From NCBI GenBank assembly GCA_963794065.1, contig CAWCDA010000042.1:143861-207860 (forward strand): a stretch of 64,000 nt of DNA. The letters run 5' to 3'. A model generated the notes under the pieces. It made no database searches. It saw only the letters and a list, made by a program, of their open reading frames with translations, and was not told where the DNA came from. Below, one piece after another: positions 4,421 to 9,761 of the stretch. The first letter of the stretch is position 1; each line of letters starts with the position of its first letter. A program made the position numbers and the translations under genes. The stretch comes from an uncultured Actinomycetes bacterium (GTDB taxonomy: Bacteria > Actinomycetota > UBA4738 > HRBIN12).

Positions 4421-5071
4421 GTGACCGTCGACGCCCTCGCGCCCGTCGTCTTCCTCGCCGCAGCCCTCCTCGTGCTCGCCGGTGTGGTCAAGGTGGTCCG
4501 CCCGCGCGCGACCGCGCAGGCGCTCCTGGATGCGGGATTGCCGGGGTCACGCGCGGTCGCGCGCGGGATCGGGGCCGTGGAGATCGCCACGGGTGTCTGG
4601 GCGGTCGCGGCGCCGGCCGCAGGGGGCGCGCTCGCGCTCGGGGTCGTGTACCTATCGTTCGCGGGTTTCCTGGGCTACGTGTTGGGCGTGCATCCCGAGG
4701 CCGGGTCGTGCGGGTGCGCCGGCCCGACCCCCGTGCCACCGAGCCGCCTCCATCTCGTGCTGAACGTCCTCGCGGGCGTGGCGGGTCTGGCGTATGCGAC
4801 GACCATGGCGCCATCCCTCGGCGCATGGGTCGGGACGTTGGACTGGGCCGCCGCGCCGATCGTGGCCGGGCTCGCGCTCGCCGGGTGGCTCGCGGTAGTG
4901 GCGGTCACCGAGGCGCCGGCCGCGTTCCGTTCTTGGGAGCGCCCGACGCACGATCACGACGCGGAACCGCATGGCCATGATCACGCCGTCGCGGACCACG
5001 AGCTTGCGACCGCCGGCATCGGCCCCGGGCACCCGAGCCTGTGGCCGGGCACGAAGCCGGAGCCCGAGTGA
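4421..5071 (+). CDS. MauE/DoxX-family redox-associated membrane protein with a His/Asp-rich C-terminal tail
   Basis: ORF 4421..5071 has four or more hydrophobic helices, a conserved-looking SCGCAG segment, and the tail THDHDAEPHGHDHAVADHE. The family call comes from memory of the MauE architecture plus the MauD-like and MauA-like neighbours. Confidence 0.6.
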   Translation: MTVDALAPVVFLAAALLVLAGVVKVVRPRATAQALLDAGLPGSRAVARGIGAVEIATGVWAVAAPAAGGALALGVVYLSFAGFLGYVLGVHPEAGSCGCAGPTPVPPSRLHLVLNVLAGVAGLAYATTMAPSLGAWVGTLDWAAAPIVAGLALAGWLAVVAVTEAPAAFRSWERPTHDHDAEPHGHDHAVADHELATAGIGPGHPSLWPGTKPEPE

Positions 5072-5640
5072 GCGCGGTTCTCGACCTGGCGACGCGCGCC
5101 GTCTCGCCACGCGCGACGCGCCGCGGCAGGGTCGCCGAGGCCGCCAGCGCCCTCGCGGTCGCGCCGATCCGGTTCGCGACGCGACCGGTTTCGGCGGATG
5201 CCGTCGTGCGGAAGAGCTGCGCGAGCTGTCCGGGGGGCAGCCGCTGCTGTGGCTCCTACACCGCGTTCTGCTGCACGCTGCCCGGTGGCGACAACTTCGG
5301 ATGCCCGCCGAACACGTTCGTCGGCGGTTGGTGGCAGTGCAACTACGGCGGCACGAACCTCTGCAGCACGACGAACATGCGCTACTACCTGGATTGCTCG
5401 ATCAACCCGGGCGCGTCCTGCCCCGGCGGGTGCCACTGCGGCAACGACGACTGCACGAACTTCAAGACCTGTTGCGTCGTATTCCGCTACGGACAGTGCA
5501 ACACGGACATCCCGTACGTGACGCCGATCCAATGCCGCTTGATCACGTGCGTGATCCCGTGTCGGATCGACTGCCTAGACTGCGACTGCTCCTCGGCCGT
5601 CGATCAGCACACGTGCCTGCACGAGGCGGGATGTCTGTGA
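5068..5640 (+). CDS. secreted cysteine-rich protein (25 Cys) resembling the methylamine dehydrogenase light chain (MauA)
   Basis: Start at GTG 5068, overlapping the upstream stop (GTGA). The N-terminus RATRRGRVAEAASALAVAP is signal-like. The mature part CCTLPGGDNFGCPPNTFVGGWWQCNY...YYLDCS resembles, from memory, MauA CDCSGGSLTNCPPGT...ASWVASCYNP...YRDCC. Confidence 0.55.
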   Translation: MSAVLDLATRAVSPRATRRGRVAEAASALAVAPIRFATRPVSADAVVRKSCASCPGGSRCCGSYTAFCCTLPGGDNFGCPPNTFVGGWWQCNYGGTNLCSTTNMRYYLDCSINPGASCPGGCHCGNDDCTNFKTCCVVFRYGQCNTDIPYVTPIQCRLITCVIPCRIDCLDCDCSSAVDQHTCLHEAGCL

Positions 5641-6290
5641 GCGTCGGCGCCCTGACCGCGCTGGTGATCGTGGAGACGATCGTGCTCGCGCTGCTCGCCG
5701 TCGTGGTCGTATCGCTCTTGCGGAGTCACGCCGAGCTGTTGCGGCGCCTTCCCGCACCCGATGACGAGCAGGAACATCACGCGCACGGCGCGGCCGTGCC
5801 GATCGAACGGACGCCGACGCTGTCCGCCTCCATTCCGGCTCCGAAGCGACAGGCATCCGAGGCGCATGACGTGGTCGGCACGACGCTCGGCGGCGACCAG
5901 GTGGTCGTCTCGGCCGCGTCCGGCAGCGACACGTTGTTCGCCTTCCTGTCGACGGGGTGCCTGACGTGTCAGACGTTCTGGGATGGACTGCGTCCGGGCG
6001 TCCGGCGACCGATGCCGGGAGACGCGCGGGTGATCGTCGTGGTCAAGGACCCGGCGTTCGAGTCGCCGTCGAAACTCGCGACGCTCGCGCCTCCCGACGT
6101 GCCCGTGATCCAGTCATCGCAGGCGTGGGAGGACTTCGGCGTCCAGATGTCGCCGTATTTCTGTTTCGTCGACGGACGCTCGGGCTCGGTCCGGTCGGAG
6201 GGCGCGGCGATGAGCTGGGAGCAGGTGTCGTCGCTGCTGACTGACGCGTTGTTTGACGAAGCGGCCGCGCGCGCCAAGGGGAGCGGATGA
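5631..6290 (+). CDS. membrane-anchored thioredoxin-fold protein (MauD/TlpA-like), CxxC = CLTC
   Basis: Internal Met 221 of ORF 4971..6290 starts MSVSVGALTALVIVETIVLALLAVVVVSLL (TM anchor). It continues ...LFAFLSTGCLTCQTFW...MSPYFCFVDGRSGSV. It overlaps the upstream stop by 10 nt. Confidence 0.75.
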   Translation: MSVSVGALTALVIVETIVLALLAVVVVSLLRSHAELLRRLPAPDDEQEHHAHGAAVPIERTPTLSASIPAPKRQASEAHDVVGTTLGGDQVVVSAASGSDTLFAFLSTGCLTCQTFWDGLRPGVRRPMPGDARVIVVVKDPAFESPSKLATLAPPDVPVIQSSQAWEDFGVQMSPYFCFVDGRSGSVRSEGAAMSWEQVSSLLTDALFDEAAARAKGSG

Positions 6291-6961
6291 GTCCGGTCGT
6301 CGCCGTGGGGCTCGGGGTCGCGATCGTGGCCGGCCTCCGATCGACCTGGTCCCCGTGAGGCGTGTCGATGCTGGGGAGCATCACTCCGCTCGGGGAGCGG
6401 AGCCGCGGATCGAGGTGGTGGGTGACCGCGACGGCCTACCTCGTCGGGTCATCGGTCGGCGGCGCGCTGTTCGGCGGGATCGTGGCAGCGATCGGGGTGG
6501 CGATCGGCGTCGCGGGCTGGGCGACGAGCGCGCGGCTCGCGACGATCGCGCTCGCCTTGGTGATCGGTCTCGCGCTCGACCTCGGCGTCGGCGGTCTCCG
6601 ACTGCCGAGCGTCCGCCGACAGGTCGACGAGGAGTGGCGCGGCCGCTACCGCGGCTGGGTCTGGGGGCTCGCGTTCGGGTTCCAGCTGGCCCTCGGTGTG
6701 GTCACGATCGTGACGACGTCGACCGTCTACGTCACGTGGCTGGCGGCGTTGCTGAGCGGATCGGTGGCGGGAGGAATCGCGATCGGCGCCCTGTTCGGGT
6801 TCGCACGGGCCGTGCCCGTGTTTGCGGTCGCGGGCGTGCACACCCCGCGACAGTTGCTCGGGGTGGATACGACGCTGCGGCGCTGGGCCCGCCCCGCGCG
6901 ATCGGCCGCGTACGCGGCGGCGGGCGCGCTCGCAGGGGTCGCCGCGGCGGTGGCGCGATGA
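6287..6961 (+). CDS. polytopic membrane protein with an in-frame TGA at 6356-6358 (candidate Sec or Cys position in an xSP[C/U] motif)
   Basis: ATG 6287 overlaps the upstream TGA (ATGA). There are 23 codons, MSPVVAVGLGVAIVAGLRSTWSP, then TGA, then the same frame continues as ORF 6362..6961 (about 6 TM segments, no Cys). If the TGA is a true stop, the CDS is 6362..6961. Confidence 0.5.
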
Positions 6962-7410
6962 CGCAGCTGCGTGGCCACGGGCTCGCCTTGACCGTGCGCC
7001 GGGGATGGGAGGCACGGATCTGGCTGCCCGATGCGCCGCCGCCCGCGGAGAACCGTCCGGTGATGCGCCTCGCGAACTTCGCGCTGCCGTCCACGAAGGA
7101 CACGTACGCCGAGAACGTCGCCGACGAGCTTCGGCGGGGGCAGGTCGTCGCATCGCTGGTGGAGTTCGCGCCGCGGCTCGCCGATCGCGGGCTCTACGCG
7201 CCGCAGGGCGTGCCCGCGTTCGACCTTGAAGATCTCGATCCGCGCGCGGTGCAGCGTCACCTGCCGGGACGATCGGGGCTGCAGCGGTTCTTCTCCGTGC
7301 GCGGGCGTGCGTTCAGTCTGTACGTGATCGCCCGCGACGGCGACGGCTTGCGCGCCACGTTGCGGGAGCTCCATACGCAGCTGCTCGCCCTGGTGGTGGA
7401 GCCTGCGTGA
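6958..7410 (+). CDS. hypothetical protein within the redox operon
   Basis: ATG 6958 overlaps the upstream stop (ATGA). The C-terminal 150 aa of ORF 6253..7410, MTQLRGHGLALTVRRGWEARIWLPD..., has ordinary amino-acid composition. I recognise no family. Confidence 0.5.
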   Translation: MTQLRGHGLALTVRRGWEARIWLPDAPPPAENRPVMRLANFALPSTKDTYAENVADELRRGQVVASLVEFAPRLADRGLYAPQGVPAFDLEDLDPRAVQRHLPGRSGLQRFFSVRGRAFSLYVIARDGDGLRATLRELHTQLLALVVEPA

Positions 7411-8003
7411 GCGCGGCCGGCTGGATCGTGGCGGCGGTGCTCGGCGCTGCGCTCGTGTGGCTCGGTCTCGCGTTGTCGGGCGCGGTGCGAGAGCTCGCCA
7501 CGCTTCGGGAACGGGTCGACGCGCTCGAAGGAGTCGTCGCCCCGATCCATCTCGATGGGGGGCTCCCGATCGGCAGCGCCGAACCGGCCTGGTCGCTGAC
7601 CGCACCCGACGGGGCCGTGGTGCCGTCGTCGCTGCTCGAGGGCAGGCGACACCTCGTGCTGTTCGCGGACGCCGAGTGTCGCGCGTGTGACGAGGTCGTG
7701 CCCGATGTGGTCCGGGCGGCCGCGGCAGGCACGCTGCCCCCACTCGCCCTGGTCGGCCGCGGCCGCCCGGACGCGACGCCCGCGGCCTGGCGCGCCGACG
7801 ACCGTGCGCGCGTGGTGGCCGGCGTCGAGCGGGACCGCGACGTGAGCGACGCGTTTCGCGTCGAGGTGAGCCCGCACGTGTTCGTGATCGACGAGGGCGA
7901 CGCGGTGGTGGCCCAGGGCAGCGCCGCGACGCTCGCCGACGTCGAGGCGCTCGTGCGTGGCGCACAGGGCATCCGCATCGTTCCGGGAGCCACCGGTGGC
8001 TGA
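7407..8003 (+). CDS. membrane-anchored thioredoxin-fold protein, MauD-like, CxxC = CRAC
   Basis: ORF 7407..8003 starts at a GTG overlapping the upstream TGA. It has a TM anchor, then RELATLRERV, GLPIGSAEPAWSL, LVLFADAECRAC and VSPHVFVIDEGDAVV. This matches the MauD layout recalled from Paracoccus MauD. Confidence 0.7.
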   Translation: MSAAGWIVAAVLGAALVWLGLALSGAVRELATLRERVDALEGVVAPIHLDGGLPIGSAEPAWSLTAPDGAVVPSSLLEGRRHLVLFADAECRACDEVVPDVVRAAAAGTLPPLALVGRGRPDATPAAWRADDRARVVAGVERDRDVSDAFRVEVSPHVFVIDEGDAVVAQGSAATLADVEALVRGAQGIRIVPGATGG

Positions 8004-8262
8004 CCCGATCACGCGCCGCGGTTTCGTCACGAGGGCGACCGGCCTTGCGCTCGCGAGCGTAGGGGTTGCCGCCGGGCTCGGCCGCGACCGGGCGTTCGCC
8101 CATGTGAAGCCGTCGCCGTGCCGGGTGCGTTGCGAGCCGATCAGCCGAACCGGCTGTCTGTGCGGCGGCAACCTCTACCGCTGCTCCGGGTGCGGGGATA
8201 CCTTCCACGCGTGCATCGACCGGGACCGGTTCGGCTGGTTCTGTCTTCGTCGGGCGTGCTAG
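7996..8262 (+). CDS. small Tat-signal cysteine-rich secreted protein (10 Cys in about 53 mature residues)
   Basis: GTG 7996, in the frame of ORF 7957..8262, gives VADPITRRGFVTRATGLALASVGVAAGLGRDRAFA (twin-arginine signal). The mature part is HVKPSPCRVRCEPISRTGCLCGGNLYRCSGCGDTFHACIDRDRFGWFCLRRAC. Confidence 0.6.
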   Translation: MADPITRRGFVTRATGLALASVGVAAGLGRDRAFAHVKPSPCRVRCEPISRTGCLCGGNLYRCSGCGDTFHACIDRDRFGWFCLRRAC

Positions 8263-8263
8263 C

Positions 8264-9572
8264 TCAGATCGAGGAGCGCAGCCACACCGCGTAGTTGCTG
8301 AACGAGGGCTGGTACCGATCGAACGCGACCCGCCGCCTCGAGCCGGTGAGCGCGAGCGACGGTTCGTCGTTGGTACGGAACCTGCCGCGCGTCGCGTCGG
8401 TAAGACGCGCCGGCGCATGCCACGTCGTGCCGCCGTCGGGGGACTCGACGTACAGGATGTCGATACGAGCGCCCGCGGCGAACGGATCGCAGGCGTGCTT
8501 GGCGAGCGTGTTCCGACGGCAGCCCGCAGCGGCGACAGCGATGCCAGTGGACTCGAGCGGCAGTACCGCCGGCCCGTAGCCGTCGTCGAACCGGGTTCCG
8601 GCGATCGTGGTCTGCCACGTGAACACGGTCGACGGCGCGCCGAGCGTGACCCCGTCGAAGGTGCGCACCTCGAGGCTCGTAGCGGTGGAGTAGGCGATCG
8701 CCACGCGCGGGTCGGCCGGGTCGGCGGCGCCGCCGACGGCGGGGTAGTGCTGCCGATCGTTCGGGCTGCGGCCCGTCAGTTGGATCGGTGTCGCGCCGAT
8801 GAGATCGTCTCCCCCGACCGACGACGTCAACGCCCGTTGGATGCCCGTGTCGGTGGCGATCCACGCGATCGCCACGTCGGCGCCGCTGACGCCGATGTCG
8901 GGCAGCCCCGCATAGCCTTCGCCGGCGCCGAAGGGTTTCGACGTCGTCTGCCCGATCGTGGCCTTCGTCCAGCGCCGACCGCCGTTGTCGCTGTGGGCGA
9001 TGCGGATCCCGCCGTTGTCCGCCGAGGTCCACACCGCGAACAACCGACCCTCACCGATCGCGACACGCGGATAGTCGACGCGGCCGTTGGTCGGGGACAG
9101 ACGCTTGCGCGCCGACCATGTCTTCCCCTGGTTGCGGCTGACGCGTATCCACAACACCCTCGGCGCGCCCGCGGCGGTATCGGCCGTAGCTGCGCTGGGT
9201 CACCCAGCTCGCGATGACCGTGTTGCCGTCGGCGGCGATCGATACGCGTTCCGCGTGGGTCGAGGTGGGACTCAGCCGCCGCGGCTTGCTCCACGACGGG
9301 GGATCCGCTCCTGCAGGGGAACGCTGCACGAACACGCCCATGTGCGGTCCATCGTCGCTCGCGCACTTCTCGGACGGCGGCGGGCAGTCGCTCGCCCAGA
9401 TCGACAGCAGCTTCGAGCCCGTGGCGGCGAGCGACTTACCGGGGTTCCAGGCATAGGCGGCCGAGGCGCGGTGCGGAGCGCCGAACGTCGCCGCGAGCGA
9501 GGGCGCCGTCGTCGCCAACGCCGCCGTCACCACGGAGCCGACGACGAGCAGGCGCAGACCCCGGCGTGTCAT
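8264..9572 (-). CDS. secreted BNR-repeat (sialidase-like / exo-alpha-sialidase fold) protein with an apparent frameshift near 9160-9190
   Basis: The N-terminus from Met50 of ORF 9051..9719 is MTRRGLRLLVVGSVVTAALATTAPSLA (signal peptide). The body is ORF 8264..9157, with SxDxGxTW-type BNR motifs SRNQGKTW, SDNGGRRW and SPDGGTTW. Confidence 0.7.
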
Positions 9573-9607
9573 GGCTCGGCATCGTACCCGGGGTAGCATC
9601 CCCGCAG

Positions 9608-9690
9608 GCCCGGGTGCCGGAACGGTAGACGGAGGCGCCTTAAAAGCGCTCGCTCGAAAGAGCGTGTGGGTTCGACTCCCACCCCGGGCA
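9608..9690 (+). tRNA. tRNA-Leu (anticodon UAA), 83 nt, no encoded CCA
   Basis: Manual cloverleaf. The acceptor stem GCCCGGG pairs with CCCGGGC. The anticodon stem is GGCGC/GCGCT with loop CTTAAAA. There is a long variable arm CGCTCGAAAGAGCG. The T arm is GTGGG-TTCGACT-CCCAC and the discriminator is A. Confidence 0.9.
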
Positions 9691-9761
9691 CGGAACACGT
9701 ACGCGGGTCGGCACCGCAAGGGTTGAGCCAGGCTCCCGTCGTTCCTCGGTAGGCTGGCGCC

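Follow-up and report, generated by a model that had tools for sequence, protein, structure and literature searches.

A twin-arginine-led, cysteine-dense protein family of Actinomycetota as a probable diverged branch of the methylamine dehydrogenase small-subunit lineage

We analysed a window of 64,000 nucleotides from an uncultured Actinomycetes bacterium (assembly GCA_963794065.1, contig CAWCDA010000042.1, positions 143,861 to 207,860), in which a gene near the left edge encodes the 190-residue precursor of a small exported domain with 25 cysteines. This gene holds the position of MauA, the methylamine dehydrogenase (MADH) small subunit, in a five-gene cassette with homologues of the mau helper genes, and we refer to its product as the cargo. 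In our favoured reading, to which we assign a probability of about 0.68, the cargo is a disulfide-rigid extracytoplasmic domain of ~145 residues, led by a twin-arginine translocation (Tat) signal and matured by its cassette, and a strongly diverged member of the lineage of subunits that carry tryptophan tryptophylquinone (TTQ). It would belong to the lineage from which methylamine and aromatic amine dehydrogenases obtained their small (TTQ) subunit: the first two thirds appear to keep the MauA layout C...C...CC..GG..CPPxT..W..C..YxDC..CxC, and the last third is different.

The reading frame of the cargo starts with GTG and overlaps the stop codon of the upstream mauE homologue as GTGA. The precursor begins with a leader, TRRG...AASALAVAPI...ADA, that combines a twin-arginine motif, a weakly to moderately hydrophobic h-region and an AxA site (the N-terminus reads ...TRRGRVAEAASALAVAPIRFATRPVSADA, followed by VV), and from which Tat export is predicted, with cleavage inferred after ADA. 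Relatives share the consensus SRRGxLARxAxAGSAxAVAPVRYLxRP (alignment A1), with an unusually conserved leader tail, and are named 'twin-arginine translocation signal domain-containing protein' in several sources. An earlier note on this DNA had counted 25 cysteines in the mature region, and exactly 25 lie downstream of the likely cleavage site between ADA and VV, within a region of ~145 residues (positions 51, 54, 60, 61, 68, 69, 79, 91, 99, 110, 118, 122, 124, 129, 135, 136, 144, 156, 161, 165, 169, 172, 174, 183 and 189); the CC pairs and CxC elements it described are present as RCCG, FCC, TCC and CHC. The adjacent W88 and W89 are the sole tryptophans of the window cargo. The gene and its parts, in window coordinates, are:

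5068..5640, forward strand: 25-Cys cargo gene, precursor of the exported domain
5068..5202, forward strand: leader of ~45 residues, with TRRG at 5116-5127, the conserved AVAPxRYxxRP and likely cleavage after ADA (5194-5202)
5227..5445, forward strand: MauA-like part, residues 54-126, with C54, C60, C68/C69, GG, C79-P-P-x-T, W88-W89, C91, R-Y-Y-L-D109-C110 and C118-P-G-G-C122-H-C124
5329..5334, forward strand: near-invariant Trp pair W88-W89, aligning with the quinone-forming Trp57 of MauA
5392..5394, forward strand: Asp109, 99% conserved, aligning with Asp76 of the MauA YRDCC motif, the catalytic base in MADH
5482..5505, forward strand: F139-R-Y-G-Q-C144-N-T, the most conserved non-Cys motif, without Trp, in the region of MauA NDIxW108-C109 (the alignment there is of low confidence)

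The gene is real and belongs to a large family for which neither Pfam nor NCBIfam holds a model. Homologues numbered 220 at E<=1e-3 in a single-sequence search and 1068 with a 24-sequence profile, and a profile run exhaustively over 1.84 billion cluster representatives gave 508 matches, 227 of them at E<=1e-30. No family member has a Pfam domain in the cargo region, and searches of Pfam, NCBIfam and PDB sequences with the protein and with profile A1 returned nothing relevant. The family occurs in 31 of 401 sampled Actinomycetota genomes (22 of 248 genera) and is single-copy in every carrier except G238, which has an additional short matching fragment; named records come from Thermoleophilia (Solirubrobacterales, Gaiellales) and Nitriliruptoria. 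Among 137 cluster representatives 32-55% identical to the window protein, 16 cysteines are 86-100% conserved (54, 60, 68, 69, 79, 99, 110, 122, 124, 129, 136, 144, 156, 161, 172 and 189), as are the non-Cys residues N76, P80, G87, W88, W89, R105, Y106, D109, F139-R-Y-G-Q143, R157, P164 and H185. With the window protein added, making 138 sequences, W88 is 96% and W89 100% conserved. The earlier statement that the protein has only the WW pair and no later Trp thus holds for the window protein and its clade but not for the family, where position 165 is Trp in 94 of the 138 sequences and Cys only in the window's clade.

The similarity that ties the cargo to MauA runs through a plasmid of Thermomicrobium roseum (NC_011961.1). 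At a locus of ~475-492 kb, reached by tblastn with MauA, five small open reading frames (ORFs) are positive for PF02975, the MauA profile (WP_143714793.1 and unannotated paralogues, e.g. L091 ~5900-6340). The plasmid ORFs score 24-41 bits with PF02975, T. roseum-type proteins above its cut-off score 31-43 bits, and two metagenomic relatives score 31.5 bits (L102) and 36.6 bits (L099). The T. roseum ORFs read ...CLCSCLGGSDSACPSGTQEGGAWWACYF...RYLDCCGPRDRRPACPSGCSC... and the window cargo ...FCCTLPGGDNFGCPPNTFVGGWWQCNY...RYYLDCSINPGASCPGGCHC..., which are much nearer each other, and both have GGxWWxC, RYLDC and CPxGCxC. BLASTP aligned the cargo with one plasmid ORF, Tr1, at 33% identity over 70 residues (E 6e-6). 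In Smith-Waterman comparisons with Tr1, a second plasmid ORF (Tr2) and L102, the cargo scored 107, 93 and 125, respectively, with 5000 shuffles each at 47-48 +/- 9; the real score was reached by 0, 2 and 0 of the 5000 shuffles, and reversed-sequence controls stayed near background at 53-61. Over residues 54-126 the similarity to PF02975-positive T. roseum-type proteins is significant, at z 6.8-8.8. A hidden Markov model (HMM) of the window's clade placed the T. roseum-type proteins as the top 6 among 4264 decoy ORFs, and the other Cys-rich protein of the window operon, a 10-Cys mini-protein taken as a negative control, scored at background. The T. roseum genes also adjoin genes for MauE, a CPPC membrane thioredoxin and a selenocysteine-type MauF, MauF(Sec), that are the best matches of the window cassette proteins. 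Two differences separate the groups: the T. roseum proteins are shorter, with ~100 residues in the mature part, and they keep an NxNWC (Trp108) motif and pass the PF02975 cut-off, whereas the cargo does neither. Taken on its own, membership of the cargo in the MauA lineage, as a diverged branch, is a proposition we consider quite likely.

The T. roseum locus has contents of its own. Three paralogous membrane-anchored proteins of 400-456 residues, possibly beta-propellers, have no counterpart in the window cassette; a 596-residue MauE carries the same domain at its N-terminus; and no MauG is encoded nearby.

The genomic setting of the cargo also resembles that of MauA. Like MauA and its aromatic amine dehydrogenase counterpart AauA (PF02975; 2BBK chain L, 2AGL chain D), the cargo has a long twin-arginine leader and a small Cys-dense exported domain, shows collinear C-x5-C, CC/CxC, GG, CPPxT, Trp, C, Y-x-D-C and CxC elements, and is encoded among homologues of mauE, mauD and mauF. 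The other four cassette genes, joined to one another and to the cargo gene by tight or overlapping junctions, are:

4421..5071, forward strand: MauE-family membrane protein (PF07291, E 2.8e-12, 47.5 bits against a cut-off of 27), with CGC at 4709-4717 and a His/Asp-rich C-terminal tail
5631..6290, forward strand: membrane-anchored thioredoxin-fold protein, the MauD-like partner, with CLTC at 5958-5969 (Thioredoxin_2 weak, E 0.098)
6287..6961, forward strand: MauF homologue of 224 residues, with an in-frame TGA (6356-6358) in WSP-U-G (6347-6361); annotated start 6362, true start 6287
6958..7410, forward strand: 150-residue protein, the fifth cassette member, without signal peptide or known family

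In tblastn searches of 82 loci, 81 had the thioredoxin alongside the cargo and 81 the membrane protein; the 150-residue protein was found in 76 of them and MauE in no fewer than 61. The cultured Egicoccus halophilus and Euzebya rosea have the five genes in another order, with the cargo last, and mere inherited synteny is therefore ruled out. When all ORFs of 84 loci were clustered, no sixth conserved gene, be it for a heavy chain, an oxygenase or a cupredoxin, was found; the next most frequent clusters reach at most 25 of the 84 loci, all in the window's clade, and comprise a second MauD-like thioredoxin, the 10-Cys mini-protein and a BNR protein on the opposite strand. The cassette thioredoxin is weakly MauD-like (phmmer 2.2e-6 against Paracoccus denitrificans MauD in a six-protein set). 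The 150-residue protein has no mau counterpart and no match in Pfam, NCBIfam or PDB; its homologues in Egicoccus and Euzebya match at E 1e-21 and 6e-13. MauE substitutes for DsbB in E. coli in a manner that requires its CXC motif, and the roles of MauE and MauD in small-subunit maturation are summarised in the same source (preprint 10.64898/2026.03.05.709764).

The cassette's third helper became recognisable once its reading frame was extended upstream. The motif WSP-TGA-G-x-SM lies in frame, 5' of the annotated start, in all six loci compared, which span three lineages (the window locus and two from Thermoleophilia, together with those of Egicoccus, Euzebya and Thermomicrobium). With the TGA residue read as Cys, the 224-residue protein matches P. 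denitrificans MauF by phmmer (4.9e-26, 80 bits) and by BLASTP (34% identity over 207 residues), and P. denitrificans MauF has TWSPCG at this place, so that the cysteine of its SPC motif corresponds to the TGA-encoded residue of the cassette protein. Judged from this alignment, the membrane protein is clearly a MauF homologue whose TGA would be read as selenocysteine. We rejected a description of it as a Cys-less DsbD_2-like protein, perhaps a metal transporter, once the in-frame TGA proved to be conserved and the protein to match MauF. With this match the cassette contains homologues of all three small-subunit maturation genes, mauF, mauE and mauD; mutant phenotypes described by Chistoserdov in 1994 and van der Palen in 1995 and 1997 reportedly link these genes to maturation of the small subunit. 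The genome that holds the window encodes SelA (PF03841), the selenocysteine synthase. Its gene lies outside the window as two adjacent pieces (contig C45, 280164-281238, reverse strand), one covering positions 1-138 of the model and the other, in another frame, positions 136-366. The split points to a frameshift or a misassembly of this gene in the metagenome-assembled genome.

The P. denitrificans mau cluster contains MauF, MauE and MauD, all with homologues in the cassette, and in addition mauB, mauC, mauG, mauJ, mauM and mauN, which the cassette lacks. MauA has a single Trp57 together with Trp108 and 12 cysteines in a six-disulfide framework; the cargo has a WW pair without Trp108, its family has 16-25 cysteines, and it extends further by a C-terminal region of ~60 residues (FRYGQCNT...H185). 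Where MauA has NDIxW108-C109 the cargo reads FRYGQC, there is no third Trp, and Trp165 of most family members has no alignment support as the equivalent of Trp108. Unlike MauA/AauA systems, the cargo locus is without heavy chain, MauG or amicyanin. Neither the window's own genome (77.5% complete) nor any of five carriers with 96-100% completeness has MauB (PF06433), the P. denitrificans plasmid serving as a positive control; MauG/CCP (PF03150) is absent from the same genomes, with positive controls in 4 of 14 named genomes. Lacking Trp108, MauB and MauG, the system cannot make canonical TTQ, as the earlier note had anticipated from the tryptophan content, and the cargo is therefore not a subunit of a TTQ amine dehydrogenase: it is not an amine dehydrogenase and no TTQ is made. 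A conceptual likeness exists to the gamma subunit of quinohemoprotein amine dehydrogenase (QHNDH), another small, Cys-rich, crosslinked exported subunit, with cysteine tryptophylquinone (CTQ) and Cys-Asp/Glu thioethers, whose cofactor arises from a Cys and a nearby Trp. No sequence similarity between QHNDH gamma and the cargo was detected, and its maturation factors QhpD (a radical-SAM protein) and QhpG (a flavoprotein) have no counterpart among the conserved neighbours.

The pattern of cysteine gain and loss points to disulfides. The window protein combines 16 family-wide and nine clade-specific cysteines; the commonest count in the family is 18 (256 sequences), and the window's clade has 25 (54 sequences). 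Co-variation computed on 451 family sequences showed that the nine non-core positions are gained and lost together, with phi 0.97 for the pair 91-183, 0.98 for 165-174 and 0.79 for 118-135. Such pairwise gain and loss is predicted by disulfides and not by sets of metal ligands, and indicates that the variable cysteines are disulfide partners. As 25 is an odd number, one Cys, possibly C169, would be left over, either unpaired or otherwise employed.

These observations can be assembled into a tentative maturation pathway. The precursor would be exported by Tat, possibly escorted in the cytoplasm by the 150-residue protein. MauE, through its CGC motif, would pass electrons to quinone and re-oxidise the CLTC thioredoxin, which in turn would write disulfides into the cargo, eight in the core and 12 in the window's clade. 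A further relay, MauF(Sec), may repair mispaired cysteines, probably by reduction or isomerisation. The finished domain would then act at the cell surface, free in the window organism and tethered to the wall in Nitriliruptoria through LGFP or CWB2 repeats, probably as a head for binding or catalysis centred on W88, W89, R105, D109, FRYGQ, R157 and H185, with a conserved patch of aromatic and polar residues.

How far the likeness to MauA itself can be carried was examined by direct comparison, with a divided outcome. Alignment by hhalign of three family alignments with three MauA alignments (8, 10 and 79 sequences) always paired residues ~54-126 with MauA 23-90, the very segment for which the earlier note had proposed the similarity, and without exception the hhalign and pairwise alignments place W88/W89 opposite Trp57. 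Read by eye, ~9-10 of MauA's 12 cysteines have apparent collinear counterparts in the cargo, and the Smith-Waterman score of the window cargo against canonical MauA (a query identical to PDB 2BBK chain L) gave P ~0.03. To this part of the earlier proposal the mau-type neighbours and the T. roseum-type similarity lend further weight, but several results count against our reading, the direct tests with MauA being weak or negative. PF02975 (gathering score 25 bits), the search the earlier note had put forward as a check, does not match the window cargo even at E<=1, and gives 181 bits for P. denitrificans MauA as a control. The hhalign comparisons reached only P 0.002-0.02 and probabilities of 1-12%, the family HMM set against composition-matched shuffled MauA gave P 0.005-0.33, and a search of the PDB with the family profile found no MADH chain. 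Profile A1, run over the T. roseum plasmid, did not find the MauA-like genes, and distant family members such as that of Egicoccus score much lower against the T. roseum proteins (68-74). The second proposed check was structural. A first AlphaFold run with 24 sequences was unusable, with a predicted local distance difference test score (pLDDT) of 48; a second with 111 sequences, including Nitriliruptoria fusions, gave a model with pLDDT 86.9 and near 95 in the mature domain. With this model Foldseek, which is weak on small irregular disulfide-rich folds, returned no PDB or BFVD match at E<1, and with the limit relaxed to E<=10 MADH light chains still did not appear. Two further points lie on the same side: the roles proposed for MauF(Sec), the thioredoxin and the 150-residue protein are inferences, and MauE is now regarded as a general oxidase, so unrelated cargos could share these helper genes.

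This last possibility is the core of an alternative that we judge unlikely, in which the cargo is an unrelated disulfide-knot domain that uses the same MauE, thioredoxin and MauF folding module, and its likeness to MauA is convergence among Cys-rich, Tat-led sequences. The unmatched PF02975 profile, the sub-threshold hhalign scores and the lack of Foldseek matches would all be expected of such a protein; MauE is widespread without MauA, and the window operon itself holds a second Cys-rich Tat cargo unlike MauA. Convergence of composition nonetheless fits poorly with a T. roseum-type similarity that far exceeds what composition-matched shuffles and reversed controls reach, spans ~75 collinear residues including CPxxT, WW, YLDC and CPxGCxC, and puts the T. 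roseum-type proteins in the first six places among 4264 decoys. MauF homologues, moreover, were met only in mau-type contexts in this analysis. A scan of 401 Actinomycetota genomes with PF02975 gave no match above the cut-off and brought up no intermediates; two fragments lay below the threshold.

The earlier note had offered three options, a cofactor-bearing subunit, a metal-binding or storage protein, and a purely structural one. A cofactor-bearing quinoprotein would be a descendant of the TTQ subunit with a new cofactor, made from the Trp pair and Trp165 in most members or from the pair and Cys in the 25-Cys clade; it would work as a free or wall-anchored surface oxidoreductase without heavy chain or MauG, its redox chemistry supplied by MauF(Sec), MauE and the thioredoxin. 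W88/W89 and D109 do stand at the Trp57 and Asp76 positions with 96-100% conservation, the 54 sequences of the window's clade have an odd number of cysteines (25) and a Cys in place of W165, and such a product would fit with Tat export and with the expense of a cassette of its own, selenoprotein included. We nevertheless find a quinoprotein distinctly improbable: five near-complete carriers have no MauG/CCP member, no conserved oxygenase, radical-SAM or flavoprotein gene lies near the cassette, Trp108 has no alignment-backed equivalent, and conserved Trp and Asp residues can be purely structural. Least likely of all, and hard to credit, is the metal option, in which the cysteines would serve as ligands for Cu, Zn or Fe-S that is inserted ahead of Tat export. 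In its favour, proteins loaded with cofactors typically take the Tat route, the adjoining MauE has a His/Asp-rich tail, and MauF is of the LysE/DsbD_2 type of membrane protein, a type whose relatives include metal transporters. Against this stand the variable cysteines, which are gained and lost strictly in pairs, the disulfide-forming partners (the CXC of MauE and the CxxC thioredoxin), the placement of the domain on the cell wall of aerobes, and an AlphaFold fold that is confident and compact without ligands. We continue to favour a disulfide-rigid member of the MauA lineage, which could be either cofactor-bearing or purely structural or binding.

Domain fusions locate the cargo on the cell envelope. 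In Nitriliruptoria the cargo domain, behind its Tat leader, forms the N-terminal head of proteins of 440-780 residues whose remaining parts are LGFP repeats and/or CWB2 cell-wall-binding repeats, with DUF4214 in one case. These fusions argue that the domain is displayed on the envelope, and its role is more probably that of functional head than of anchor; the displayed, highly conserved surface suggests an activity of the cargo domain at the cell envelope. Two metagenomic cluster representatives (P0123 and P0128) are single ORFs of 377-387 residues that run from a MauE domain (CRCFG or CDCFG) through a leader into the Cys-rich domain with no stop between. Either these are genuine fusions or the overlapping GTGA junction misled the gene calls; if real, they would underline a physical coupling of MauE and cargo.

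The helper genes were already known from mau clusters, and the closest relatives of the cargo are MauA/AauA and, nearer still, the T. roseum MauA-like proteins. New here are the cargo family as such and the fact that it does without heavy chain and MauG, as well as the predicted selenocysteine MauF, the 150-residue partner and the wall-anchored variants. The cassette can be viewed as a stripped-down natural mau system in which three helpers serve one cargo, without heavy chain, MauG or electron acceptor, and in which the one redox position of MauF would be taken by selenocysteine. Several hundred soil Actinomycetota carry the cassette, the cultured genera Egicoccus and Euzebya among them, which makes the roles of the helpers testable on a simple substrate at a time when the DsbB-like action of MauE has only recently been shown (preprint 10.64898/2026.03.05.709764). 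The cargo also defines a large unannotated family, for whose confidently predicted fold no neighbour could be detected among the solved structures.

Downstream of the cassette the window carries additions that are confined to its own clade:

7407..8003, forward strand: second MauD-like thioredoxin, with CRAC at 7677-7688 (TIGR02661 MauD, E 2.9e-8, below cut-off), in 28 of 82 loci
7996..8262, forward strand: Tat-signal mini-protein with 10 Cys
8264-9719, reverse strand: BNR/Asp-box repeat protein (sialidase-like propeller), convergent to the operon, beside the cassette in ~21 loci

The CRAC thioredoxin and the mini-protein form a module (7407-8262) found in 24-28 of 82 loci. We considered the mini-protein as a half-MauA and rejected this, its scores being equal to those of shuffles; it is unlike both MauA and the 25-Cys protein. 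Within the cassette, the C-terminal end of the window MauE (4990-5071) carries the motif L-x-x-AGI-x-PG-x-P-x-L-[WY]-P, and in Euzebya and Egicoccus the same motif ends the membrane thioredoxin instead (L095 3725-4489), with 61% identity over 18 residues. This conserved tail appears to have moved between two proteins of the cassette.

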